Source: a virus | Length of the DNA stretch: 64,000 nt | Reading direction: 5' to 3' (one strand) | IMG/VR virus record: IMGVR_UViG_3300008740_000712 | Span: 55,131 to 119,130 of that record | Shown here: piece after piece, positions 35,761 through 55,842 of the stretch | Position numbering within the stretch: the stretch's first letter is position 1 | How the letters are laid out: each line of letters starts with the position of its first letter | Position numbers and translations under genes: made by a program | Notes under the pieces: model-generated | Told to the model about the DNA's origin: nothing | Databases searched by the model: none | Seen by the model: the letters and a program-made list of their open reading frames with translations, nothing else

Positions 35761-36482
35761 TGCACAAACATCCTGTTTAACCTCACCTCTTCAGAAATCA
35801 TATGTCCGTCGTAAGAAATAACATGATGAGTATATTTTGCAACATCCTGAGTCGTCATAAAGGTATCATAAATTTGCCCCAACTTTTCAACTTCCTTGCC
35901 CATGTCGGTCTGAATCGATCCTGGGGAGATGCAGTACACTCTCACACCATCTTGCTTCAATTCCTTGAACAAAGACCTAGACAAACCCAAGAGGGCGTGC
36001 TTTGAGGCACAATAAGCAGATGTCTTGGGGGAACCACCGTAGGCTGAAGAGGAAGCAATATTCACAATTCTGCCCCACTGATTTTTCTTCATGCCGGGTA
36101 AAAACTCTCGAATAATAACAAAAGGAGATTCTACATTCACCTTCATGCAATTTTGAAAATCCTTCGTTGTCATATCCTCGATAGAAGATATGGGAAAAGT
36201 GGCAGCTGCGTTGACTACGACATCGATGTTCCCAAAATCATTTTTGATTGTAGATGTCATACTCAGTACAGACTCACTATCCGACAATTCGCAGACATAA
36301 GTTCCAATCTTCTGTTCTTTCATTGCGATAAGTGATAACTCGTCTTTTAAATTCAGAAGCTTTTTCCAGTCTCTTCCCACCAAAACAACATTGTTTCCTG
36401 TTTTGAGAAACTCTTCACACATCGACTTTCCAAGTCCTCCATACGCACCTGTTATAAGAATATTTTTACCCTGTAGTGTCAT
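35757..36482 (-). CDS. Short-chain dehydrogenase/reductase (SDR)
   Basis: TGAYGGLG, VVNAA, NIASS, YCASK, VRVYCISPG. Confidence 0.9.
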   Translation of the reverse strand: MTLQGKNILITGAYGGLGKSMCEEFLKTGNNVVLVGRDWKKLLNLKDELSLIAMKEQKIGTYVCELSDSESVLSMTSTIKNDFGNIDVVVNAAATFPISSIEDMTTKDFQNCMKVNVESPFVIIREFLPGMKKNQWGRIVNIASSSAYGGSPKTSAYCASKHALLGLSRSLFKELKQDGVRVYCISPGSIQTDMGKEVEKLGQIYDTFMTTQDVAKYTHHVISYDGHMISEEVRLNRMFVQ

Positions 36483-37299
36483 CTTTTTTTCTCAACTTTT
36501 TAGCAATTGGGATTTCCGAATCATAAACAATCTTTGCTCCCGTTCCTAGCATCAGTTCCATTTTTCGAATGCCATCAATTAAGGAATCGGAGTCTTCAAT
36601 CGAAGCAGACTGATCTGAACCGTAGGCAGTCCTATCGTTGGTTATGTGAAATTCAATGCACTCTGCACCAAGAGCAACTGCACCGACGCAGGCGTCTAAT
36701 CCACTATAGTGATTTGAAAAACCAACAGATAAATCAGGATAGTTTCCCTTTAGTGTTCGAATGTGTCTTAGGTTTATCTCTTCCGGTGCTGTGGGGTATG
36801 TGCTCGTACATGCTAGAACGATTTTTAAATTTTTAAGAATTCTTATTGCAGCAGAGATTTGCTCCGTAGTACACATTCCGGTAGACAGAATAACAGGTTT
36901 TCCTGTTTCGTTTAATTTGTTTAAAAACTCCTTATCGGTCGCAAGTGCAGATGCCACTTTATGATATTTGACATTTAAGTTTTCTTCAACAACATCGACA
37001 CTATCGATATCCCAACAGGAAATAATGAATTCCATGCCCTTCTTGGCGGTGTATTCTTCCAACTCTTTATATTGCTCAATGGAGAATTCCAGACCTTCCT
37101 TCTGCTGTCGATTGGTGGTGCCCCAGGGTGATTCCCTACCATTGTCCAACTCCTCTTTGGTATAGACAAGTTCTATTGTTCTTTTTTGAAACTTAACAGC
37201 ATTAGCACCAGATGATGCTGATTTATCTATTAGTTTCTTTGCCAGCTCTATATCACCGTTGTGGTTGATTCCTATTTCTGATATTACATATGTGGTCAT
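36466..37299 (-). CDS. neuB: N-acetylneuraminate / nonulosonic acid synthase (NeuB family)
   Basis: ISEIGINHNGD, ANAVKFQK, KVASA, KPVILSTGM, CTSTYP, GFSNH, IEFHIT; lacks the usual C-terminal SAF/AFP domain (277 aa). Confidence 0.9.
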   Translation of the reverse strand: MTTYVISEIGINHNGDIELAKKLIDKSASSGANAVKFQKRTIELVYTKEELDNGRESPWGTTNRQQKEGLEFSIEQYKELEEYTAKKGMEFIISCWDIDSVDVVEENLNVKYHKVASALATDKEFLNKLNETGKPVILSTGMCTTEQISAAIRILKNLKIVLACTSTYPTAPEEINLRHIRTLKGNYPDLSVGFSNHYSGLDACVGAVALGAECIEFHITNDRTAYGSDQSASIEDSDSLIDGIRKMELMLGTGAKIVYDSEIPIAKKLRKKDDTTG

Positions 37300-38510
37300 T
37301 AGTCTCTCCTATTATTGAAATATTCAATTGTTTTTCTCAGTGCATCTGCCTTGCTCTTTGCGATCCCTAGATTACGATAATTTGTCTTAATCTGCATTAA
37401 TCTTGGTTGCAACTCCTCTGCCACCGGGCATATCCCCTTTTGGTAAGATACGTTGGAATAAATTTCCGGATACCTTTTAACATATTCCCTATTATACATG
37501 AGGGGTTCTAGATACGGATTTTTCCAAGCGGCATAATATCCATCACCCCCAAGTTCGACATACTTGTCTCTAAACTCTTGCCAGATTACTCCCATGTGTG
37601 TGTCTCCATCATATCTTACTCCCAAAGTATAATACGAATGGACTGAATTGTAAAGAACTTTCTGAGGGGTTAAATAATCACACTCCCCAATTGCTTGCAG
37701 AAATAGATTTGCTACTGATTTTCTCATTTCTATTTTCTCTTCCAAGTCCTCGAATTGTGCCAAGGCAATTGCTGCGGAAAACTCACTGAGTCTGTAGTTC
37801 CAACCTAATGAGTCGTGTCTTTCGAAATCGGGATCTTGAAAATCATATTGGTTTGAGAACTTTATTTTTCCACCATCAGCGCTCAAATTCTTATAACCAT
37901 GTCCTGCTACTTTTCGAGCAGACATTGCAAGATTCTCATCATTGGTCAATAGTATGCCACCCTCTCCGCAACTCATTTGTTTAGCATTCTCGAAACTCCA
38001 ACTAGAAAAGGAATTAGAAACACCTACTCGGTTTCCCTTATGTTGGGACAAGAGGCATTGCGCGTGGTCCTCAATGACTGGAATATTGTATTTTTCGGAG
38101 ATCTCATTGATCCTACCCATGTCACAAACGGCACCGTATAAAGTGACGACAATAATTGCCTTTGTTGACGGAGTTATTTTTCTCTCTATATCCTCCGGAT
38201 CTATAACAAAAGTCTCCGGATCGACATCTGCATAGACTGGGATTGCATTACACTGTATGATAGTGGATGTATCCATGATTACCGTAAGTGCCGGTGTTAT
38301 AACTTCGTCACCAGCACCAACACCGAGGGCCTCTAGGGCAGCATGTAAGGTTGCGGTGCCGGAATTCATGGCAATAGCATACTTGCATTCAAAAAAATCC
38401 GAAAACTTCTTTTCCAGTGTTCTGCACCAGGTGCCGTGTTCTGCGGGTTGGCCATCCAGTACCATCTTCAGGTATTTTAATTCATTTCCTGTATATTTGT
38501 CACTCTTCAC
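37299..38510 (-). CDS. DegT/DnrJ/EryC1/StrS PLP-dependent sugar aminotransferase
   Basis: NSGTATLHAALEALGVGAGDEVI, VIEDHAQ, SFENAKQMSCGEGG, GWNYRLSE. Confidence 0.92.
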   Translation of the reverse strand: MKSDKYTGNELKYLKMVLDGQPAEHGTWCRTLEKKFSDFFECKYAIAMNSGTATLHAALEALGVGAGDEVITPALTVIMDTSTIIQCNAIPVYADVDPETFVIDPEDIERKITPSTKAIIVVTLYGAVCDMGRINEISEKYNIPVIEDHAQCLLSQHKGNRVGVSNSFSSWSFENAKQMSCGEGGILLTNDENLAMSARKVAGHGYKNLSADGGKIKFSNQYDFQDPDFERHDSLGWNYRLSEFSAAIALAQFEDLEEKIEMRKSVANLFLQAIGECDYLTPQKVLYNSVHSYYTLGVRYDGDTHMGVIWQEFRDKYVELGGDGYYAAWKNPYLEPLMYNREYVKRYPEIYSNVSYQKGICPVAEELQPRLMQIKTNYRNLGIAKSKADALRKTIEYFNNRRD

Positions 38511-39267
38511 TTTTGCTCTCCTTCAAAATTGGTTTATTAATATTTTCCTGATTCTTCTTCCACTTCTCATCAAGATAAAAATTAATATTTGCTAATTCAG
38601 GATTATCGCAAATCAACTTATATGCTTCTTGGAAGTTAATTGTTCTACCCTCTTGCAACAATCTTTTTATCACAGATTCAAAAAAAACCAAGTCGTCTTC
38701 GTAATCCAGAGTCATTCTTACATTCTTTTTTCTATAACATTCTGGCACATCTTGTATTCTCTGGACATCGAACAGATCTGTTTCGGTGAAGTATGGTCTG
38801 ATATATTCCGTCTTCTCTGTTGCCTTGATGTCGCAGACTTTTTTTAGAGAGTTGTAGGAAATTCCATAAGCATCATTATACAGTCCATGACCGTCTATAA
38901 AATCGACGTTGCTATTCTTGTTCTGCTCGAATATCAAATCAGCAAGTCCACAATCAAACAACAAATCATCTCCATCTACGTTCACAAAAAAATCAACCCC
39001 ATACTCTTCACAGGCAGACTTCCATCGAACTAACTTGTCCTCGTTTGCGCCGCGGAAGAAGGATATTCCATTCTCAGTTGCTATGTCGCACAAGGCAGTG
39101 TCCTCTTCTCTCTCGGTCGTACATAAAATAATTCTATCAGCATGTTTAGACTTCTTTAAACTGTCAATCAAGTAAAAGATAGTTGGTTTATCAACTATTT
39201 CCCTCATGGCCTTGAAGGGCAGCCTACTAGAATTTGCCCTAACAGATATAAAAATGCAATTACTCAC
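38500..39267 (-). CDS. CMP-nonulosonate synthetase / cytidylyltransferase (SpsF/PseF-like)
   Basis: VRANSSRLPFKAM, FFRGANEDKLVR, VNVDGDDLL, RMTLDYEDD. Confidence 0.85.
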   Translation of the reverse strand: MSNCIFISVRANSSRLPFKAMREIVDKPTIFYLIDSLKKSKHADRIILCTTEREEDTALCDIATENGISFFRGANEDKLVRWKSACEEYGVDFFVNVDGDDLLFDCGLADLIFEQNKNSNVDFIDGHGLYNDAYGISYNSLKKVCDIKATEKTEYIRPYFTETDLFDVQRIQDVPECYRKKNVRMTLDYEDDLVFFESVIKRLLQEGRTINFQEAYKLICDNPELANINFYLDEKWKKNQENINKPILKESKSEE

Positions 39268-40025
39268 CCTACACCACAGTCCAATAAATTGTCATGATTA
39301 AGATCCAGCATCGTATTCATGTACGGATCTATTTTAATGCAAGAATTTAGGGACAAGAGTCTCTTGAAGTAGGAGAGTTGAACCATCGCAGCATGGCTAC
39401 CGTGACCAAAGGTTCTCCCATCCGTGTCGGCCTTGTCCATATGACCAGGGCAATAAAGGTCTTCATATCTTTCACCACCGGTATAGAAAGAGAATCCGGT
39501 TATAAGCAATTCTTTGATAGGATAGTTAAGTAAAGTTACGATGCTTGCCATGCCTGTGTGAAACTCTACACCTATTTCTGCATATATCCTATTGTAATCC
39601 CTCACCCCAATCCAATAAAAAGGGAGGTCGTATTCGTTAATATCTTGAAAATTATGCACCACCTGACTTACGTGGTTGTCCGGCCAATTGAGAAAATCTA
39701 CGTCTTGGTGGGATGCTTTGGTGGCAGAACACACGACAAGTTTTAGATTTTTAAAATACTCTCGTCTGTCCTCCGACTCGATCTTCCTCTTTATACCTGG
39801 CATCCATTGCGTCCCGAAATTGCAAAACATAATATCTGTCCTGTTACCATAGTCCAACCTCTGTTGTTTTAGGGGAATGATCTCATTTGGTCGGCAGACT
39901 ACATCATAGTCATCAAGATGCTTGTGAAGATTTTTTCCCTGTAGGTATCCGGCCGGACCAATTAAAGCTACCGTCTTTCCCTGCACAATATCATACAAAT
40001 CCTTGTTTATCTCCAACTTTTTCAC
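39264..40025 (-). CDS. GT29-like sialyl/nonulosonyl-transferase
   Basis: Sialylmotif L-like GKTVALIGPAGYLQGKNLHKHLDDYDVVCRPN and S-like FHTGMASIVTLLNYPIKELLITGFSFY; probable GTG start at 40025 overlapping the upstream TAG. Confidence 0.7.
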   Translation of the reverse strand: MKKLEINKDLYDIVQGKTVALIGPAGYLQGKNLHKHLDDYDVVCRPNEIIPLKQQRLDYGNRTDIMFCNFGTQWMPGIKRKIESEDRREYFKNLKLVVCSATKASHQDVDFLNWPDNHVSQVVHNFQDINEYDLPFYWIGVRDYNRIYAEIGVEFHTGMASIVTLLNYPIKELLITGFSFYTGGERYEDLYCPGHMDKADTDGRTFGHGSHAAMVQLSYFKRLLSLNSCIKIDPYMNTMLDLNHDNLLDCGVG

Positions 40026-40672
40026 TATTTGTAATCCATTGTGCAAACTTCTGCTTTTTTTCTTAGAATAGTCATACCATTGCATCTTGGAATTGTAGAA
40101 TATTCCCACTCATCTAAATCCAACTCGGCAATTGCTCGATATGGGCCACCATGATCCCACTGTTTATCTTTCGAGTCCTGAACCGATCTATATTGGGGCT
40201 GTGAATTATAGTACATAAGATCGTGTAAAAGGAACAGGTCATTGGGTGTGGCATACTTGGAGATCAATTCTATCTCCCTCTTAACATGTTCATATGAATG
40301 CCAATCGTCAATATAAAAAATCCTAGACCTAGAAGAATTAGATGTTTCTTGCAATACTTCTTCCAGATCTTCTTCCAAGAATTTTATAGCATCTTTTTGG
40401 TGGAACTGCCATCTCTGCTTCCAGTGATCGGGGAATTGGAAGTCTGGTACTACCGGGTCAATATCGACCGAGATCAATTTTGAATCAATGATGTCGCAAG
40501 CACACAAGAAAGGCAAAGTGCTTCTAGCAGTACGGACTCCCAATTCTAAAATGAGACACGGCTTCATGGATATCGAAAGTGAGAAGAGTGTCATAAGATG
40601 TTCATCGATATCTCCCTTGCCGTGTACCACAAGGTGCGTCAGTAAGTCAATTGGATTAATATTTTTATTCAT
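40025..40672 (-). CDS. Class I SAM-dependent methyltransferase (Methyltransf_24-like)
   Basis: LELGVRTARST, SVDID, FYIDDWHSYEHV, LLHD. Confidence 0.8.
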   Translation of the reverse strand: MNKNINPIDLLTHLVVHGKGDIDEHLMTLFSLSISMKPCLILELGVRTARSTLPFLCACDIIDSKLISVDIDPVVPDFQFPDHWKQRWQFHQKDAIKFLEEDLEEVLQETSNSSRSRIFYIDDWHSYEHVKREIELISKYATPNDLFLLHDLMYYNSQPQYRSVQDSKDKQWDHGGPYRAIAELDLDEWEYSTIPRCNGMTILRKKAEVCTMDYK

Positions 40673-40699: not shown

Positions 40700-40847
40700 T
40701 GGTGGAGGAGAGAGGATTCGAACCTCTGTCTCTTGTGTGCGAATTGGGTGTTTTTCCAATTAAACTACGGTATTTAACCGACAGACTCGAACTGCCATCT
40801 CTCAATTCATAGCACACACAATTGTTTTCCCACTAAACTACTCCCCC
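40700..40847 (-). ncRNA. Nested double-tRNA: tRNA-Ala-like shell with a circularly permuted second tRNA body fused through the anticodon arm
   Basis: Reverse complement parses as GGGGGAG TA GTTT AGTGGGA AAAC A ATTGT GTGTG CTATGAA TTGAG AGAT GGCAG TTCGAGT CTGTC GGTTAAATACCG TA GTTT AATTGGAA AAAC A CCCAA TTCGCAC ACAAG AGAC AGAGG TTCGAAT CCTCT CTCCTCC ACCA. It has two D-arms, two T-arms and one acceptor stem with G3:U70, A73 and CCA. Confidence 0.85.
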
Positions 40848-40859
40848 TTTATAATTCTC

Positions 40860-40887
40860 ATTGTATCACATTTATTGGATTTGTTAT
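40860..40887 (-). promoter_or_regulatory. Putative sigma70-type promoter of the tRNA-like RNA
   Basis: ATAACA-16 nt-TACAAT with an extended -10 (TG-A-TACAAT), 12 nt upstream of the RNA 5' G. Confidence 0.5.
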
Positions 40888-40901: not shown

Positions 40902-41669
40902 TCACAAAATTGCTTGAACCTTAGTTGGTTCGAAAAGCATTCTTTCTTTCCACACTGGGTATGCTCCGTGGCCACCGTAAATCACATATCTAACACCATC
41001 TCGATGAAATAAATTCTTTATGACGGAAACGAGCATAGTCATCATAATCCCATCCCTAAGATGATCGGCATCTGCCAAAATAAGGTGAACAAGTACGGTT
41101 TCTCCCTCTATCGCAATTCTACAGTATCCATACAACCTTTCATTAGTAACTCTATCATCTTGTTTGTAGTTTTTTAAGTACCTGAAGATGCCATGCCACA
41201 AAGAATAGTGGTTCTGATCTTCCCATCTATGTTCACCACCAGTGTGCATCCCAGAAAAATTCTCAGGCTTTTGCAAGTACCACGGATTCATATTTCCTTT
41301 TCGTCTTTGTTGTGAAAAGTTAATCTTTGAAAAGTCCTGCACAAACTCATTAAAATCGTATTCTCTTACATAATATTTCTTTTTTTTGCAGTTCTCTATA
41401 TCTCTCCTGACATTTGCGGATAGATTACTGTAATATTTTTTAAAATCATAATCATATTTCTCTAAATCAATGACGGACATCCCGGCGGTGCCGGAATAAA
41501 GGGGGTGAGTGCCGTTATTTATGCTTTTTATAACATTCTCATATTCTCGTCCATTGAAATTATCACGACAATGATTCAAGTCCCACAACTTATAACAATC
41601 GGAATGATAAGAAATTCCTTGCAATTTTATTCTTTCGTTATTATAAAGTTTTGGATATATTGTTTTCAC
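40902..41669 (-). CDS. GNAT-fold protein, FemAB / Acetyltransf_6-like
   Basis: SVIDLEKYDYDFKKYYSNLSANVRRDIENCKKKKYYVREY matches the Fem-like xDL...L....RRxI.K...V pattern; the C-terminus has a GNAT-like strand/helix order (LYGYCRI...VHLILAD...GIMMTML...YVIYGG). Confidence 0.6.
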   Translation of the reverse strand: MKTIYPKLYNNERIKLQGISYHSDCYKLWDLNHCRDNFNGREYENVIKSINNGTHPLYSGTAGMSVIDLEKYDYDFKKYYSNLSANVRRDIENCKKKKYYVREYDFNEFVQDFSKINFSQQRRKGNMNPWYLQKPENFSGMHTGGEHRWEDQNHYSLWHGIFRYLKNYKQDDRVTNERLYGYCRIAIEGETVLVHLILADADHLRDGIMMTMLVSVIKNLFHRDGVRYVIYGGHGAYPVWKERMLFEPTKVQAIL

Positions 41670-41986
41670 TTCATCTCCTCTATCATAAAAAATTCTCTTG
41701 AGTTTATTGCTTTGTCACAAATAAAAATATCATAAGATGGTTTGCCCATCTTCAATTCTGCGTACTTAACTCCCCAATCGTCCAATTGCGTGGATGTAAG
41801 CAAAGAGTGATCTTCTCCCGTGGTGCCTCCCCTGGCAGTCCAATATACTATGGTATGGCCAGCATCATAAAATTTGTTAATTTTTTCTATATTTTTAACC
41901 AGAGGTGTTGCAGCTGCATAATCTCTTTTTCCACTTGTCTTCGGATGTTCGCAAATAGTCTCGTCAATATCAACATATATAATCAT
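41666..41986 (-). CDS. Small HAD-superfamily phosphatase (capsule-biosynthesis type)
   Basis: IYVDIDETIC, VYWTARG, MGKPSYDIFICDKA. Confidence 0.8.
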   Translation of the reverse strand: MIIYVDIDETICEHPKTSGKRDYAAATPLVKNIEKINKFYDAGHTIVYWTARGGTTGEDHSLLTSTQLDDWGVKYAELKMGKPSYDIFICDKAINSREFFMIEEMK

Positions 41987-42703
41987 TTAATAATCCTCCC
42001 AACTCAATACGGGATTGGATAGTCTATCGTCTATACTCTTTCCGTTTGGTCGTATTCTAGTAAACCTAATTGGGTATCTCCCTATCCGCAGGCCGGATGT
42101 GGTCAGGTGCCAAAAGAGGGTAGATTCAGCATGTAGTGATCCACCCTGTGATACAAATTCCCTAACTCGTTCATATTCAGAAAGGTATATCTGCATATTC
42201 TCATAGTTGCTCACTGCGAACCTATCATTGCAACCTCCGCCCTGAACTCTGTCGAAATTGTGGAAATCGGGGACACACATATTTGCAAGATCTAAATCCT
42301 TGGGGATGTGCTTTAGAAAAGATATATCTAATCTCGAAAAAACAACCTTATCGTAAATGAAGTTATTTTCCCTACAATGCTCCCTAATCATCTCTCCACA
42401 TTTCTTTCTCGACAACAGCATGTTCAGATATGTTTGTTTTGGGAATTGACCGGAGTGTGGGCCTGCGGGCCAATTGTGTTGCCAACGAAGACCTTCCAAC
42501 TCGATTTCTTCATCGGACTCTACTTTTAGTTGTATAATGTTCTCGTAGTTCAGATGCTCGTGTACCTGATCTATAAATTTTGAATCGGAGACATGGGCAA
42601 ATATATCACATTGCTCTTCAGTATCTATGAGGTACTTCTTTAAGTTCTCGTGAGTATACTTTAACGATCTCCCTGTTCCAGTGAAGCAAATTGCTGTTTT
42701 CAT
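41987..42703 (-). CDS. Putative glycosyltransferase / glycan-modifying protein
   Basis: MKTAICFTGTGR, YDKVVFSRLDI, CNDRFAV, HAESTL pattern; context in the glycan island; start moved to ATG 42703. Confidence 0.5.
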   Translation of the reverse strand: MKTAICFTGTGRSLKYTHENLKKYLIDTEEQCDIFAHVSDSKFIDQVHEHLNYENIIQLKVESDEEIELEGLRWQHNWPAGPHSGQFPKQTYLNMLLSRKKCGEMIREHCRENNFIYDKVVFSRLDISFLKHIPKDLDLANMCVPDFHNFDRVQGGGCNDRFAVSNYENMQIYLSEYERVREFVSQGGSLHAESTLFWHLTTSGLRIGRYPIRFTRIRPNGKSIDDRLSNPVLSWEDY

Positions 42704-42713
42704 TTTCTTTTTC

Positions 42714-43640
42714 CTAATAGTTTGCATACCAAGGTGAATCAATAATTGAGTATGTTTTTATAAGTTCTCTTATTCCATCATCTAGATCATAAAGACAAGA
42801 AAATCCCTTAGAATAAAATTTGTCACTGCTGACGATGTAATCTCTGACATCTGGATCTGAATTAAACTCTGTCCTTATTATCTCTATGGGGGAGTGCTTG
42901 TTTATTGTTTTTGCCAGCTGTAGTTTGTTCATATTCAACGAGTCGTTACCGACGTTGTATGTTTCGTTCTTACATTTATCCCAATTTTCTATAACGAACA
43001 AGAAAGACCGGCAAACGTCGTCGATGTGAATGTAATTTCTCATAAACTCACATTCGTATAAGACGATCACCCTATCCTTCAATGCTCTTAGGACAAAATT
43101 ATTAACCAACAGATCACTTCGCATCCGACTGCTTGGCCCGAAGACTGTGGCAAGTCGGAATGTAACATGATTGTCTGCTTGCCTATAAAACTCCTCTGCT
43201 TCAACCTTTGTTTTGCCATATAGGGAAACGGGAGTGAGTGGTGATTCCTCGGTGCAGACTTTTCCATCCAATGATTTTCCGTATCCTGAATTTGTACATG
43301 GGTAAATGACAATCTGTTCTTTTGATTTGTTTTCTGCTATCCACTTATTTATATCTCTATTTATCTCTTCGGCATCTCTTGGACTGCGGTCGCACAATGG
43401 GAAACCAACTAGGGCAGCTAGTGGGATTATCACGTCACTGTCTCTCATCAGTGGTTCCAGTATGCTCGTATTTCGAACATCACCCTTAACAAAATTAAAG
43501 TTTTTCTCCTTGGTATATCTAAGGAGTGAGGTGTGATCATACATCAGACTGTCAACGACGGTGACTTGATGGTCTGGTAAAAGATATGATAACAATTCAC
43601 TTCCTATATATCCAGCACCTCCTGTAATTAAGATTTTCAT
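42714..43640 (-). CDS. NAD-dependent nucleotide-sugar epimerase/dehydratase
   Basis: MKILITGGAGYIG, PLAALVG, YGKTK, FRLATVFG; start moved to ATG 43640. Confidence 0.9.
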   Translation of the reverse strand: MKILITGGAGYIGSELLSYLLPDHQVTVVDSLMYDHTSLLRYTKEKNFNFVKGDVRNTSILEPLMRDSDVIIPLAALVGFPLCDRSPRDAEEINRDINKWIAENKSKEQIVIYPCTNSGYGKSLDGKVCTEESPLTPVSLYGKTKVEAEEFYRQADNHVTFRLATVFGPSSRMRSDLLVNNFVLRALKDRVIVLYECEFMRNYIHIDDVCRSFLFVIENWDKCKNETYNVGNDSLNMNKLQLAKTINKHSPIEIIRTEFNSDPDVRDYIVSSDKFYSKGFSCLYDLDDGIRELIKTYSIIDSPWYANY

Positions 43641-43641
43641 A

Positions 43642-44037
43642 CTATTCTTCTCCCAATATATTAGAGGTCGAAAAATTACCGACCCTATCAAAATACTTAA
43701 CCTCTCGGCAATATTGGCTCCCTACCACTGGTTTTTCCATATAGTCCGATCCAACAACTATGAAGTCCGGATCATAGATCCTAATCTTGTCTTCCAGTTC
43801 CATCGGTGAGGCAAAGGAGACTACTTCATCTACATATTTTATCGAAGACATCATCTCCACTCTATCAGAAAGGGTGTTTATCGGTCTTGTTTTTCCCTTG
43901 TCTCTTCTCACCTTTTCGTCAGTATCCAATCCGACGACGAGGGTGTGCCCAAGTGAACTTGCGTACTTCAACATCTCAATGTGGCCAATGTGAAGGATGT
44001 CAAAACACCCATTTGTCCACACTCTTATATTTCTCAT
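43642..44037 (-). CDS. HldE/RfaE domain II-like nucleotidyltransferase (HIGH family)
   Basis: VWTNGCFDILHIGH, LVVGLDTD, KGKTRPIN, IVVGSDY, FSTSNIL. Confidence 0.85.
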   Translation of the reverse strand: MRNIRVWTNGCFDILHIGHIEMLKYASSLGHTLVVGLDTDEKVRRDKGKTRPINTLSDRVEMMSSIKYVDEVVSFASPMELEDKIRIYDPDFIVVGSDYMEKPVVGSQYCREVKYFDRVGNFSTSNILGEE

Positions 44038-44041
44038 CTCA

Positions 44042-44794
44042 TTAGGTGTCTCGGTCAACTACAACAACCCCCTTTCGCTGAACAACACTGGTTGCACACT
44101 TGTTTGCAAACTGTAGTGAAAAATTAACATCACCTGTTTTAAGGATCTGCGTTGCGAAAGCTGCTAAAAAAGTATCTCCTGCTCCTGACAGGTCTTTGAT
44201 TTCGACCTTCTTGACTGGGAAAGTTTTTTTCCCGTATAAGCATCCGGATGAACCCTTTGTAATAATCAATTTCTCATCCAACCATTTCTTGTTTTCTATA
44301 AACTCTCTGCTTCTCTCATACTCAATCTCATTAACTTTTATAAAAGTTATGTTCTTGGCCCATGTGCCCAAAATCTTTTTTGTATCCAAAAAAGTACAAC
44401 CATGCTTTGAGGATATTTCAAAAATATCTTCCTTCTTTAAGAAACCCTTATCATAATCTGAGATAACAATTGCATCATATTTTTCGTAATCTATCCTGCC
44501 TATGTCTTCTATCCTCTTTACGGACTCTTCACCTGAATCGACTCTAACGATCATGTGGTTTGTCTTTTCCTCCACATACCTCGTCTTTGTAACTTCGTCA
44601 AGATTAGTGATCAAGTCACACTCCACTCCGAGGGAGATCAAGTTAGAATAAACATTACCAGACATACCTTTGCTTATAATATTTTTCGTTGGTACGAAAA
44701 CAGGAACAGGTGCATCGGGGCATTGCCTGTCGGCAGTGCCGTAAACGTAAACATCCTTACAACTGTCTCCTATAACAAGAACCCTCACTTCCAA
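44042..44794 (-). CDS. HldE/RfaE domain I-like heptose-7-phosphate kinase (PfkB family)
   Basis: LVIGDSCKD, PDAPVPV, IVISDYDKG, DLSGAGDTF. Confidence 0.85.
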   Translation of the reverse strand: MEVRVLVIGDSCKDVYVYGTADRQCPDAPVPVFVPTKNIISKGMSGNVYSNLISLGVECDLITNLDEVTKTRYVEEKTNHMIVRVDSGEESVKRIEDIGRIDYEKYDAIVISDYDKGFLKKEDIFEISSKHGCTFLDTKKILGTWAKNITFIKVNEIEYERSREFIENKKWLDEKLIITKGSSGCLYGKKTFPVKKVEIKDLSGAGDTFLAAFATQILKTGDVNFSLQFANKCATSVVQRKGVVVVDRDT

Positions 44795-55116: not shown

Positions 55117-55842
55117 ATGAAGAAAATAATGACTTCTTTAATAGTGGCAATGCTCATACTTGGTGGGTGTTCCTTTATAACAAAACAAATACTCAAAAAT
55201 AAAAGGAAATCCTTTGTTCAGGTGATGGCACTATCCATACAAGCAACAAATGGGATGCCCGCGTCTTCGGTGGCATCTGGGTTTGCGGTTGCTGAGAGAG
55301 ATGAGGGAACATACATCCTTACTGCTGGACATTTCTGCGTGAACTCCATAACTCTGGATGGGCAAATCGTTCTTGAGAACAACATCTTCGTAAACACGTC
55401 GAAAGGGGAGAGTCACAAAGCTATCCTCGTGGGATTAAGTCACAAAATAGATGCCTGTCTACTGAGAACGAAACCACTAGATATGGAACCTCTTGAGATT
55501 TCATTACATAATCCGGATCGTTATGATGAGATTCTAAACATTGCTGCACCTGCGGGAATGTTTGGTAAAGATGTTGCCATTGTCTACGAGGGGAGATACA
55601 TCGGTAAAGAAACTATTGGAGCATTGTCAATGGATGTATACAATCTTCCTGCATTTCCCGGTAGTTCTGGTTCTCCTGTTTTGAATTCCTACGGGCATGT
55701 GATCGGAATGGTCGTTAGTACAGCAGGTGGGTTTTTTCATATGGCATTCTCTCCAACGCATGATGAAATTATTGACTTTTTAGAGGAACACATCGATCTC
55801 GAAAGGTACGAGATCCCGAAAGAAACTCTAATTATAGAGTGA
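55117..55842 (+). CDS. Trypsin-like serine protease with lipoprotein-type signal
   Basis: Catalytic triad motifs TAGHFC, DACLL, PGSSGSPV; N-terminal hydrophobic stretch ending LILGGC. Confidence 0.85.
   Translation: MKKIMTSLIVAMLILGGCSFITKQILKNKRKSFVQVMALSIQATNGMPASSVASGFAVAERDEGTYILTAGHFCVNSITLDGQIVLENNIFVNTSKGESHKAILVGLSHKIDACLLRTKPLDMEPLEISLHNPDRYDEILNIAAPAGMFGKDVAIVYEGRYIGKETIGALSMDVYNLPAFPGSSGSPVLNSYGHVIGMVVSTAGGFFHMAFSPTHDEIIDFLEEHIDLERYEIPKETLIIE

Follow-up and report, generated by a model that had tools for sequence, protein, structure and literature searches.

Organization of the locus

The window, a 64,000-nucleotide stretch of the IMG/VR virus record IMGVR_UViG_3300008740_000712 (positions 55,131 to 119,130), carries an RNA gene between the gene for a 255-aa protein and a group of nonulosonic acid genes (Table 1). 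Read on the minus strand, the outer frame of the RNA is a complete tRNA, with acceptor stem, D-arm, T-arm, G3:U70, A73, and CCA, which encloses a second tRNA body in permuted order, from T-arm to small hairpin to D-arm. The two bodies meet in a central rod of ~17 bp composed of two fused anticodon stems, with a conserved UAU(G) bulge on its 5′ strand. A previous reading of this DNA from its letters (the sequence-only reading) had listed the elements of the outer tRNA, the permuted inner body, and the hairpin, as well as two loop-like 7-nt strings (CTATGAA and TTCGCAC), and all of these are present in the window sequence. The canonical tertiary-core bases (U8, A14, G18, G19, T54, T55, C56, and A58) are kept in both the outer frame and the inner module, and the free 7-nt anticodon loop of a canonical decoding tRNA is absent.

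Table 1. Features of the RNA gene and its neighbors, in window coordinates
Feature	Coordinates	Strand	Evidence
Whole RNA gene, 148 nt with encoded CCA; one long helix joining two tRNA-like elbows	40700..40847	(-)	Model R1, 107 bits, E 5e-21; homologue covariation
Outer acceptor stem, 5′ strand, G1-G7 (GGGGGAG); G1 to G4 family-invariant	40841..40847	(-)	Homologue alignment
Outer D-arm, GTTT / AGTGGGA / AAAC, with G18 G19	40824..40838	(-)	Helix 2, 100% paired
Central rod, 5′ strand: outer anticodon-stem strand, GUGUG, conserved YUAUGA with 3-5-nt bulge, inner anticodon-stem strand	40801..40822	(-)	
Conserved UAU bulge of the rod 5′ strand	40809..40811	(-)	RNAalifold; single-sequence folds of most homologues
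Inner T-arm, GGCAG / TTCGAGT / CTGTC	40780..40796	(-)	Helix 5, 99.2% paired; double changes in 4/5 pairs
Inner acceptor-like mini-hairpin, GGT-TAAAT-ACC	40769..40779	(-)	
Inner D-arm, GTTT / AATTGGAA / AAAC, preceded by U8/A9-like UA	40750..40765	(-)	Helix 6, 97.8% paired; GG invariant
Central rod, 3′ strand, continuous, without bulge	40732..40748	(-)	Helices 3 and 4; double changes in 15/17 pairs
Vestigial anticodon loop UUCGCAC, fully paired, within the rod 3′ strand	40737-40743 (CGC 40739-40741)	(-)	
Outer T-arm, AGAGG / TTCGAAT / CCTCT, with A49-U65, G50-C64, A51-U63	40711..40727	(-)	Helix 7
Outer acceptor stem, 3′ strand, CTCCTCC, with discriminator A73 and encoded CCA	40700..40710	(-)	
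Putative extended -10-like site TG-n-TACAAT, 13-21 nt upstream of G1	40860..40868	(-)	Inferred
255-aa gene directly upstream; no Pfam family, predicted double-GNAT fold	40902..41669	(-)	
Downstream nonulosonic acid genes: CmcI-like methyltransferase, GT29-like transferase, CMP-sugar synthetase, DegT aminotransferase, NeuB synthase	36466..40672	(-)	

With default settings, ARAGORN detected neither a tRNA nor a tmRNA in the window. With introns allowed, a check that the sequence-only reading had proposed, a single tRNA was called, interrupted at 32/33 by an insert of 72 nt; the 281 calls produced at a lowered threshold were judged spurious and set aside. The Rfam tRNA model (RF00005) matched the window only as half-tRNAs (27.7 and 19.4 bits; gathering score 29), and the match of tmRNA_permuted had an E-value of 0.28. 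RF02553 (YrlA) was the only non-tRNA match in Rfam, placed on the inner module at 20.6 bits (E = 0.05; gathering score 69). The single-sequence fold of the window was modestly better than that of shuffles (z = -2.0), and the window sequence by itself is thus weak evidence.

A family of RNAs in uncultured marine phages

Homologous loci were recovered by an alignment-based query; queries with either flanking protein alone gave no related loci. The resulting 25 distinct homologues derive from independent marine viral and metagenomic contigs of uncultured marine phages, encode RNAs of 135–150 nt, and are all matched at full length by model R1 with scores of 85–160 bits. A homologue of the RNA is present in five IMG/VR contigs and at every metagenome locus (of 29) having downstream sequence, and more than 30 contigs, independent of one another and derived from different samples, show the two-elbow architecture. 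An RNA-pattern scan of IMG/VR, run independently, returned the identical five contigs found by the protein scan. No match to a family was obtained in Rfam, nor any match in cultured-phage records, or prokaryotic genomes: blastn of the region and tblastn of the 255-aa protein against GenBank phage records gave no match, and no relative turned up when the proteins of 185,579 prokaryotic genomes were scanned. In IMG/VR, an initial strict DNA pattern had no match. A loose pattern of two T-loops had matches in 22 contigs of genomes and in 48 stretches of IMG/VR, which beyond the known IMG/VR contigs were ordinary tRNA arrays (R1 hits of ~72 nt, ≤57 bits).

Several parts of the RNA vary among the homologues. 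CCA is encoded by only about a quarter of them, the inner mini-hairpin is optional (0–5 bp, with a sequence that differs by lineage), and the inner body is without any acceptor stem in 15 of the 25. A textbook TTGACA-17-TATAAT promoter lies upstream of G1 in several homologues and clades, placed to start transcription just before G1; in L003, L014, and L022 the RNA begins, without a promoter, 5–10 nt past an upstream stop codon. ARAGORN found no tmRNA among the 25 homologues.

Covariation and invariant positions

All seven helices covary across the 25 distinct homologues, with double changes in 28 of 42 pairs. Pairing cells amounted to 96.6% over the seven helices, compared with 82.0% in shuffles (0/500 reached the observed value) and 42–59% in slid controls, and the covariation score was 0.493 versus 0.211, where it should be noted that the alignment was fitted to the CM and that the pair counts are biased toward the model. 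The same helices were recovered by RNAalifold from an unfitted MAFFT alignment, and the rod is visible in most single-sequence folds of the homologues. Invariance is concentrated at tRNA-specific positions. The tertiary-core columns of both elbows do not vary, those of the inner T-arm (T54′, T55′, C56′, and A58′) included, and G1-C72, G2-C71, G3.U70, G4-C69, and A73 are identical in 25/25 sequences, while pairs 5–7 of the acceptor stem covary. The RNA is conserved, and both an artefact of assembly and a gene in decay are ruled out.

The region corresponding to an anticodon loop is paired throughout the family (positions 33–38), and the pair at position 34 changes in a compensatory manner (GC:19, UA:3, AU:1), which bears out the earlier proposal that pairing masks this loop. 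The rod helix between CCCAATT and AATTGAG from the same reading likewise covaries, but the 5-nt CTATG bulge given with it fits the family less well: in that register the helix is 88.4% paired with no compensation at the position-34 pair, compared with 94.6% for a 3-nt UAU bulge, where position 34 has the G of UAUGA as its partner. Either register is possible in the window itself because of a GU repeat. YUAUGA or a one-base variant occurs in all 22 main-clade sequences and is replaced in the distant clade L037-L039. A k-turn formed by UAUGA and UCGCA was considered and dropped upon sequence inspection, as the required G.A pairs are missing on the non-bulged strand.

The triplet at the anticodon position is CGC, UGC, or AGC in the main clade and AGU, with U37, in L037-L039, where it sits on an acceptor stem of Ala identity. 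U33 and an NGC triplet, mostly followed by A37, are found in 22/25 sequences. In the outer T-stem, 15 of the 25 sequences have an A-U pair at 49:65 and 17 have one at 51:63; such pairs may mirror no more than the A+T richness of the genome.

The neighboring 255-aa protein

All 33 informative loci have the RNA on the same strand as the 255-aa gene and downstream of it, usually at a distance of 5–70 nt, and this linkage persists down to 28% protein identity. The same set of sugar genes surrounds the pair in other loci, its neighbors always being epimerase/dehydratase, DegT, NeuB, CMP-transferase, GT29-like, and methyltransferase genes. No further N-acyltransferase was found in the island.

An AF2 model of the 255-aa protein (pLDDT 76, pTM 0.79) aligned over residues 10–253 with aminoacyl-tRNA transferases in all of the top 14 VIA-align rows (FemX, Sba18/Sbb17, MprF, and FemA; Z 12.6–13.7). 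The top 10 Foldseek matches (E about 1e-5) were led by a tandem-GNAT protein of the clavulanic acid pathway and otherwise consisted of Sba18/Sbb17, MprF-type, and FemX chains. Sequence comparison gave no significant match in Pfam or the PDB. The Pfam HMMs for FemAB, FemAB_like, DUF2156, and Acetyltransf_6 gave nothing above threshold for the 255-aa protein, a weak FemAB_like match (E = 0.045) appeared in one of ten family members, ESM Atlas leads pointed to Acetyltransf_6/Mig-14, and profiles A1 and A6 had no sequence match in the PDB. The wider relatives of the protein number 472; a Pfam scan of 40 distant ones detected no GNAT or Fem domain, and four carried fused sulfotransferase domains. 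FemX has near its C-terminus a catalytic Lys that follows an aromatic residue (F304-K305; role of K305, PMC12945691). An invariant W240-K241 of the phage protein is separated from the end of the structural alignment by 12–13 residues, and F304-K305 lies at the equivalent distance, a comparison by distance rather than by superposition.

By its predicted fold, which is its only link to these enzymes, the 255-aa protein is probably a Fem/MprF-like aminoacyl-tRNA transferase. Acetyl-CoA-dependent tandem GNATs score only about 1–1.5 Z below the Fem/MprF-type matches, and the protein could thus be an ordinary N-acetyltransferase that fills the PseH slot.

Discussion

The RNA probably carries alanine for a private use, the decoration of sugars, and does not act as a translational tRNA, because it always adjoins a Fem/MprF-like gene within a cluster for sialic acid-like sugars. 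We infer charging, a donor role, and the acceptor substrate. On balance, we lean toward an RNA that remains unspliced, is charged by AlaRS, stays outside of decoding, and carries alanine for the 255-aa enzyme. The sequence-only reading had offered an unspliced mimic or aminoacyl donor as one of two outcomes, and this is the alternative favored by the conserved masked anticodon, the invariant AlaRS identity set, and the strict Fem/MprF-like linkage.

As proposed, the RNA would be transcribed from its own sigma-70-type promoter or together with the upstream gene, its 5′ end would be trimmed by host RNase P, and 3′ processing and CCA addition would complete it. Alanylation would fall to the host AlaRS, as this enzyme reads only the acceptor stem, and the invariance of its identity set in 25/25 sequences while adjacent pairs drift indicates selection for charging. 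The charged RNA would be kept from decoding because it has no anticodon loop and because the rod and second elbow would misfit in the ribosomal A site; T-stem pairs of the weak type may also reduce EF-Tu binding. The adjoining double-GNAT enzyme would then remove the alanyl group from the RNA 3′ end and move it to the amino group of a nonulosonic acid precursor, the product of the DegT, NeuB, and CMP-transferase genes, to yield an N-alanyl sugar. Legionaminic acid that bears an alanyl group exists in marine Vibrio (PMC7371886), and the Gly-tRNA-dependent acylation of an amino sugar has been described for Orf11 (PMC12945691).

The donor role would require the acceptor arm alone, which leaves the complete and conserved second elbow unexplained. 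This elbow may be a binding handle, a stabilizer, or a ribosome excluder. More tentatively, and with somewhat less confidence than in the alanine donor itself, we suggest an 'aminoacyl carrier RNA' in which one end is charged by host AlaRS and the second elbow and UAU-bulged rod form a private handle that takes the RNA off the ribosome and to an unrecognized aminoacyl-transferase family, such that alanine could be placed on sialic acid-like sugars without competing with translation. The retention of U33 and an Ala-type NGC in 22/25 sequences counts against the carrier interpretation, as the triplet could still matter.

Among the alternatives, a tRNA mimic that is not aminoacylated is unlikely but fares best. 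Such an RNA would serve either as a YrlA-like scaffold or as a decoy or sponge for a tRNA-binding protein or a host defence nuclease that targets tRNAs, and its linkage to sugar genes would be regulatory or incidental. The inner module and rod have the topology of YrlA, a bacterial Y RNA (RF02553; PMC4201824), in which T-arm, acceptor-like hairpin, and D-arm follow in the same order and are closed by a long bulged helix, and the conserved second elbow and UAU bulge, unneeded by the donor model, resemble protein-binding features. However, the RF02553 score is far under its gathering score, and the helix of YrlA closes on the free 5′ and 3′ termini, whereas that of the phage RNA runs into a predicted chargeable tRNA body. 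Further, a TROVE/Rsr gene was not found in the 119-kb record (which is 66% complete), the AlaRS identity set with its G.U wobble does not vary although adjacent pairs drift, and the predicted fold of the partner protein is that of enzymes that use charged tRNA.

Less probable still is an intron-containing tRNA-Ala, from which the inner module would be excised to leave a decoding tRNA-Ala (CGC, UGC, or AGC) for phage translation. Large phages often encode tRNAs, and when introns are allowed ARAGORN reads 14/25 homologues as tRNA-Ala (13 cgc, 1 tgc), in addition to its call in the window; the U33-NGC context, mostly with A37, would also suit such a tRNA. Against this, the insert of 63–80 nt has non-canonical positions that vary between homologues (31/32 to 35), consists of a T-arm and a D-arm, matches no Rfam intron family, and is too small for group I, which would call for a self-splicing core of at least about 200 nt within the anticodon loop. 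A bulge-helix-bulge (a 3-nt bulge on either strand, separated by 4 bp) is absent, the 3′ strand of the rod being unbulged. A decoding or spliced tRNA is unlikely because pairing never leaves the 'anticodon' free, its first base changes together with its partner, and a distant clade carries AGU, which on an Ala-identity stem would mis-insert alanine at Thr codons. An intron would have no need for invariant tRNA tertiary-core bases, and the strict linkage to the Fem-like gene would be unaccounted for. The same observations (no bulge-helix-bulge or group I core, the insert at 31/32, and the AGU clade with Ala identity) speak against the other outcome raised by the sequence-only reading, a precursor spliced into tRNA-Ala(CGC) and a circular or permuted tRNA, and an inner body without an acceptor stem, as in 15/25 homologues, could not mature into a tRNA. 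In archaea and red algae, intron-containing and circularly permuted tRNA genes have a frame interrupted near the anticodon or a 3′-half that precedes the 5′-half. The phage RNA differs from these in the missing bulge-helix-bulge, in its presumably bacterial hosts, and in the inner body of most homologues having no acceptor stem.

There is little to recommend a cis-acting element for processing or punctuation, in which the tRNA-like structure would guide RNase P/Z cleavage or stabilize flanking mRNAs without a function in trans. The RNA does lie between same-strand ORFs, closely follows a stop codon without a promoter in the three loci noted above, and has no terminator downstream in the window sequence. 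Conversely, several clades have the consensus promoter just before G1, one tRNA-like fold would suffice for punctuation, and an invariant G3.U70/A73 and a covarying two-elbow structure would be superfluous. An assembly chimera or a decaying, functionless remnant of two recombined tRNA genes, for which the modest fold score of the window and its rejection by default tRNA finders could be cited, is scarcely credible: the architecture and cross-pairing recur in the 25 homologues, the architecture also in over 30 contigs that are independent of each other, every helix shows compensatory changes, and the functional positions do not vary. Neither of these outcomes, both anticipated by the sequence-only reading, was borne out. 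It is plausible, as the same reading suggested, that the two tRNA bodies go back to a duplicated ancestor.

The alanine carrier proposed here shares individual features with several known systems, though the architecture as a whole, in agreement with the sequence-only reading, appears undescribed in Rfam 15 and in literature searches. The tRNA-like domain of tmRNA is without an anticodon, is charged with alanine via G3.U70, and has a reduced D-arm. In contrast, the phage RNA has two complete elbows and no mRNA-like reading frame, pseudoknots, or tag peptide. In Staphylococcus aureus, non-proteogenic tRNAGly species are reserved as donors for the GNAT-fold transferases FemXAB rather than for the ribosome, and bind EF-Tu weakly through A49-U65 and A51-U63 pairs (PMC7826273) that are common to the window RNA and most homologues. 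Those host-encoded tRNAs have the usual cloverleaf form, anticodon loop included and functional, and serve peptidoglycan synthesis, whereas the phage RNA has a second elbow in place of that loop, Ala identity, and a sugar-biosynthesis context, and is encoded beside the enzyme gene. FemX of Weissella viridescens (PDB 1NE9, 4II9), which uses Ala-tRNAAla, recognizes its alanyl donor through the acceptor stem only, as does AlaRS; G1-C72 and G2-C71 (C71/C72) are required by the transferase and G3.U70 by AlaRS (PMC2175331), which are exactly the pairs that are invariant in the phage RNA. The model of the phage protein aligns with FemX at Z 12.6–13.7, but there is no detectable sequence homology, the protein is shorter (255 vs about 335 aa), and the acceptor would presumably be a nucleotide sugar or nonulosonic acid rather than UDP-MurNAc-pentapeptide. 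Also comparable are Sba18/Sbb17 and Orf11 (PDB 9WQW-9WQY; PMC12945691), double-GNAT enzymes that transfer an amino acid from a charged tRNA to the sugar amino group of streptothrisamine, with Sba18/Sbb17 among the best structural matches of the phage protein model. These differ in using ordinary cellular Gly-tRNA, with no dedicated RNA alongside, within an actinomycete antibiotic pathway.

Significance

To our knowledge, the use of amino acids from charged tRNAs outside of translation is limited to a few cases (Fem, MprF, L/F-transferase, and some antibiotic pathways), and the special tRNAs that we know to be reserved for non-translational use are still ordinary cloverleaves. If the proposed role is true, the phage RNA would be a tRNA rebuilt to be chargeable yet non-decoding, forming one genetic unit with its enzyme and borne by a virus. 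No other RNA cofactor that is non-decoding and dedicated to glycan modification would precede it, and it would be the first RNA found in nature to have two tRNA bodies fused through their anticodon stems. Confirmation would extend the known architectures of tRNA mimics by one with two elbows on a single rod, define a new enzyme family without a Pfam model, and imply that 'tRNA with intron' calls in phages can conceal non-translational RNAs. It would also provide a testable route to the amino acid decorations of nonulosonic acids, the enzymology of which is largely unknown.

Results

Read from the sequence, the minus-strand unit of 148 nt, here called the two-elbow RNA, contains every element that the sequence-only reading had listed for an outer tRNA frame enclosing a permuted inner tRNA body (see table). 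Standard finders largely pass over it: default ARAGORN returned no match in the 64 kb, and Rfam at gathering thresholds returned none for the region. With introns enabled, ARAGORN made one tRNA call across all 119 kb of the record, "Arg(tcg)", interrupted at 32/33 by a 72-nt insert, and relaxed Rfam searching gave two half-and-half tRNA matches (27.7 and 19.4 bits, where the gathering score is 29) and a match of the inner module to YrlA (Y RNA-like; 20.6 bits). The single-sequence fold shows a mild excess of stability over shuffles (z −2.0), such that the window RNA by itself decides nothing.

The gene immediately upstream encodes a 255-aa Fem-like protein with relatives in metagenomes, and the alignment of these relatives (A1), used as a query, led to 5 IMG/VR and 29 metagenome loci. 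Wherever sequence is available 3′ of the gene, a homologous RNA follows on that strand (31 complete copies and two truncated at the end of a contig, with one further locus uninformative), usually starting 5–70 nt past the stop codon. The sole non-adjacent case is that of L012, L013, and L016, where one small ORF intervenes. An independent, RNA-only pattern scan of IMG/VR returned exactly the five contigs found with the protein. A covariance model built from 7 of the 25 distinct RNAs (134–152 nt) recovers all 25 full-length at 85–160 bits, and the search for homologues proposed with the sequence-only reading has yielded a family of one architecture in independent contigs. These matches, with an RNA at every informative locus, rule out an assembly chimera.

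From a plain MAFFT alignment, RNAalifold predicts the outer acceptor, D, and T stems, the inner T and D stems, and a central helix carrying a 3-nt UAU bulge. Pairing was measured on a model-fitted alignment, which leans towards the model; standard pairs fill 96.6% of its cells, compared to 82.0% in shuffles (0 of 500 reach the observed value) and 42–59% when partners are slid by 1–3 columns. Both sides have changed in 28 of 42 pairs (about 19 in shuffles), and the covariation score is 0.493 against 0.211 in the control. The unfitted RNAalifold structure and most single-sequence folds agree with the fitted one. Compensatory pairs occur in all seven helices (15 of 17 in the central rod), and the invariant columns fall, in both elbows, on positions of the tRNA tertiary core (U8, A14, G18, G19, T54, T55, C56, and A58). 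The family is thus predicted to form two L-shaped elbows on one rod of about 17 bp, with a continuous 3′ strand and, in the main clade, a 5′ strand bearing a conserved YUAUGA. Not every member needs the inner acceptor-like hairpin, which is optional: it is missing in 15 of 25 RNAs, which have a 4–5-nt linker between the T-stem and the U8/A9-like UA, and elsewhere has 3–5 bp of unrelated sequence (GGT/ACC, GTGC/GCAC, ACAAT/ATTGT, CTAGC/GCTAG).

The window RNA and other long forms could adopt the pairing first proposed for the rod, GUGUG with CGCAC plus a CUAUG bulge of 5 nt, but the family better fits the UAU bulge, with 94.6% of the central helix paired compared to 88.4%. In the UAU register the G of UAUGA pairs with position 34 (GC in 19, UA in 3, and AU in 1), while the corresponding pair of the other register is broken whenever position 34 changes. 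Either register places the would-be anticodon inside a helix.

In all 25 RNAs G1-C72, G2-C71, G3.U70, G4-C69, and A73 are invariant, while pairs 5:68, 6:67, and 7:66 vary freely with compensation; at the level of sequence, a fixed wobble beside drifting Watson–Crick pairs is the pattern left by selection for recognition by alanyl-tRNA synthetase (AlaRS). Both AlaRS, which requires G3.U70, and the alanyl-transferase FemX(Wv), which requires C71 and C72, act on bare acceptor-stem helices (PMC2175331), and thus an RNA lacking an anticodon could plausibly be aminoacylated and serve as a donor. The window RNA and about a quarter of homologues encode their CCA. In six homologues a consensus TTGACA-17-TATAAT ends some 8 nt ahead of G1, which suggests strong transcription by host RNA polymerase; the window has an extended −10-like TG-n-TACAAT, and in other homologues the RNA starts a few nt after the upstream stop codon without a promoter. 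The RNA may therefore be made alone or with the enzyme mRNA, and presumably needs tRNA-type end processing.

Pfam has no family for the 255-aa protein, giving only faint GNAT matches and one FemAB_like match (E 0.045) among ten family members, and PDB sequence searches found no match to the family. An AlphaFold model from the family alignment reaches fair confidence (pLDDT 76, pTM 0.79). Its best Foldseek matches in the PDB are a clavulanic-acid-pathway tandem-GNAT protein and Sba18/Sbb17, tied at E 1.3e-5, followed by the MprF C-terminal domain and FemX (E about 1e-5). With VIA-align the top 14 rows (Z 12.6–13.7) are all aminoacyl-tRNA-dependent transferases (FemX, Sba18/Sbb17, MprF, and FemA), with single GNATs near Z 10 and CoA-dependent tandem GNATs near Z 12, a small margin that leaves aminoacyl-tRNA a putative donor. 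The invariant W240-K241 lies at the same distance from the structural-alignment end as F304-K305 of FemX, in which K305 has a catalytic role (PMC12945691). The protein family exceeds the phage clade (472 representatives at E ≤ 1e-3); some wider relatives reach 500–900 aa, and among 40 sampled 4 are sulfotransferase-domain fusions and a Pfam scan found no GNAT or Fem domain. Neighbours in the ESM Atlas include Acetyltransf_6 and Mig-14 clusters, as leads only.

The record, a fragment of 119 kb (66% complete), comes from a large tailed phage. Among its genes are those for a baseplate wedge protein, PhoH, and glycosyltransferases, and identity to the closest cultured relatives is only about 30%. 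L023, L012, L036, and L038 share these neighbours, with epimerase, methyltransferase, GT29-like gene, enzyme, RNA, CMP-synthetase, DegT, and NeuB, with L038 falling in a clade of 28–31% identity. The GT29-like gene, of a eukaryote-type sialyltransferase family, is conserved in these phage clusters; in L023 and L012 it immediately precedes the Fem-like gene, and in the window it lies downstream of the RNA. L029 holds a variant pathway around the same enzyme–RNA pair. With a heptose-nucleotide-like module beside the nonulosonic-acid genes, the phage may make a second activated sugar; beside a baseplate-wedge gene, four very large ORFs presumably encode fibre or tail proteins, which may be targets of glycosylation.

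Features of the two-elbow RNA, its neighbours, and homologous loci (window positions unless a locus is named)
Feature	Position	Strand	Description
Two-elbow RNA	40700–40847	−	read from 40847 to 40700
Acceptor stem		−	7 bp, G3.U70; then U8 A9
Outer D-arm		−	GTTT/AGTGGGA/AAAC; then long 5′ strand
Inner T-arm		−	GGCAG/TTCGAGT/CTGTC; then 11-nt mini-hairpin
Inner D-arm		−	UA + GTTT/AATTGGAA/AAAC
Long 3′ strand		−	includes UUCGCAC; then 4-nt variable region
Outer T-arm		−	AGAGG/TTCGAAT/CCTCT
3′ end		−	acceptor 3′ strand, A73, CCA
Fem-like gene	40902–41669	−	255 aa
GT29-like gene	39264–40109	−	also L023:1761–2501, L012:1684–2508
After enzyme–RNA pair			CmcI-like methyltransferase, GT29-like transferase, CMP-sugar synthetase
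Next			DegT aminotransferase, NeuB synthase, short-chain dehydrogenase (SDR)
Further, NeuB side			second SDR, TIM-barrel protein, NAD-dependent epimerase/dehydratase, cupin
Heptose-pathway module, opposite side of pair	41666–44794	−	phosphoheptose-isomerase-like (PHROG 1238), DUF7796, NAD-epimerase, cytidylyltransferase-like, PfkB kinase
Four large ORFs	1632–28050	−	2368, 1485, 1294, 2394 aa
Promoter	L002:4735–4772		near-perfect sigma-70, just before G1; equivalents in L004, L015, L017, L019, L021
Intervening ORF	L012:3241–3891		216 aa, weak DOT1-like methyltransferase match; also L013, L016
Radical SAM protein	L029:3437–5131		564 aa, after RNA, replacing CMP-sugar synthetase; UDP-glucose/GDP-mannose dehydrogenase upstream

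Discussion

The simplest account, to which we give somewhat better than even chances, is that the two-elbow RNA is a dedicated alanyl carrier. Host AlaRS would alanylate the acceptor arm of the outer tRNA, decoding would be blocked by the fused rod with its second elbow, and the adjacent enzyme would transfer the alanine to a sugar amino group. Compensated masking of the anticodon, the invariant alanine set, and the strict linkage to the Fem-like gene favour the aminoacyl donor, one of the options of the sequence-only reading. PseH or LegH is the N-acetyltransferase of ordinary pseudaminic or legionaminic acid pathways; no other N-acyltransferase was detected in the sugar island, so the Fem-like protein would fill this slot. 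Alanyl-bearing legionaminic acid occurs in marine Vibrio (PMC7371886), and Orf11 carries out Gly-tRNA-dependent acylation of an amino sugar (PMC12945691). The T-stem pairs A49-U65 and A51-U63 are those of the staphylococcal non-proteogenic tRNAGly, which bind EF-Tu weakly (PMC7826273), though A+T richness could also account for them.

A tRNA-mimic scaffold or decoy is unlikely. Less likely again is a spliced tRNA-Ala. The triplet at 34–36 is CGC in most RNAs, UGC in L020, and AGC in L012 and L016, and NGC with U33, kept in 22 of 25, looks like the relic of a tRNA-Ala anticodon loop, as YUAUGA looks like that of the inner tRNA; such relics would be compatible with recombination of two tRNA genes within their anticodon loops. 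Against splicing, ARAGORN intron calls disagree across homologues in identity (Ala, Val, Leu, Arg, Thr, Asn, "stop") and position (32–35, 41), the family has no bulge-helix-bulge motif and no match to Rfam intron families, the insert is far below group I intron size, and the distant clade (L037–L039) has AGU with U37 on the same Ala-type acceptor stem. The proposed release of a permuted or circular tRNA from a precursor is not supported, on the same grounds, and the inner body, without an acceptor stem in most homologues, could not become a tRNA. The RNA is probably unspliced and not a decoding tRNA. An operon processing element is improbable, and a decayed remnant, given compensatory pairs in every helix, is scarcely credible.

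A tRNA reserved for a Fem-type transferase is already known, but the architecture is, as far as can be told, undescribed, in keeping with its having gone unrecognised on first reading. Only the generic tRNA model of Rfam 15 matches, GenBank phage records match neither region nor protein, and 185,579 prokaryotic genomes hold no relative of the protein and no member of the RNA family. The literature search found only analogous systems, and the three bacterial tRNA-mimic families of a 2026 preprint are different RNAs. For the alanyl carrier, the donor model gives no reason why the second elbow is kept in full along with the UAU bulge, and this conservation is its most interesting loose end.
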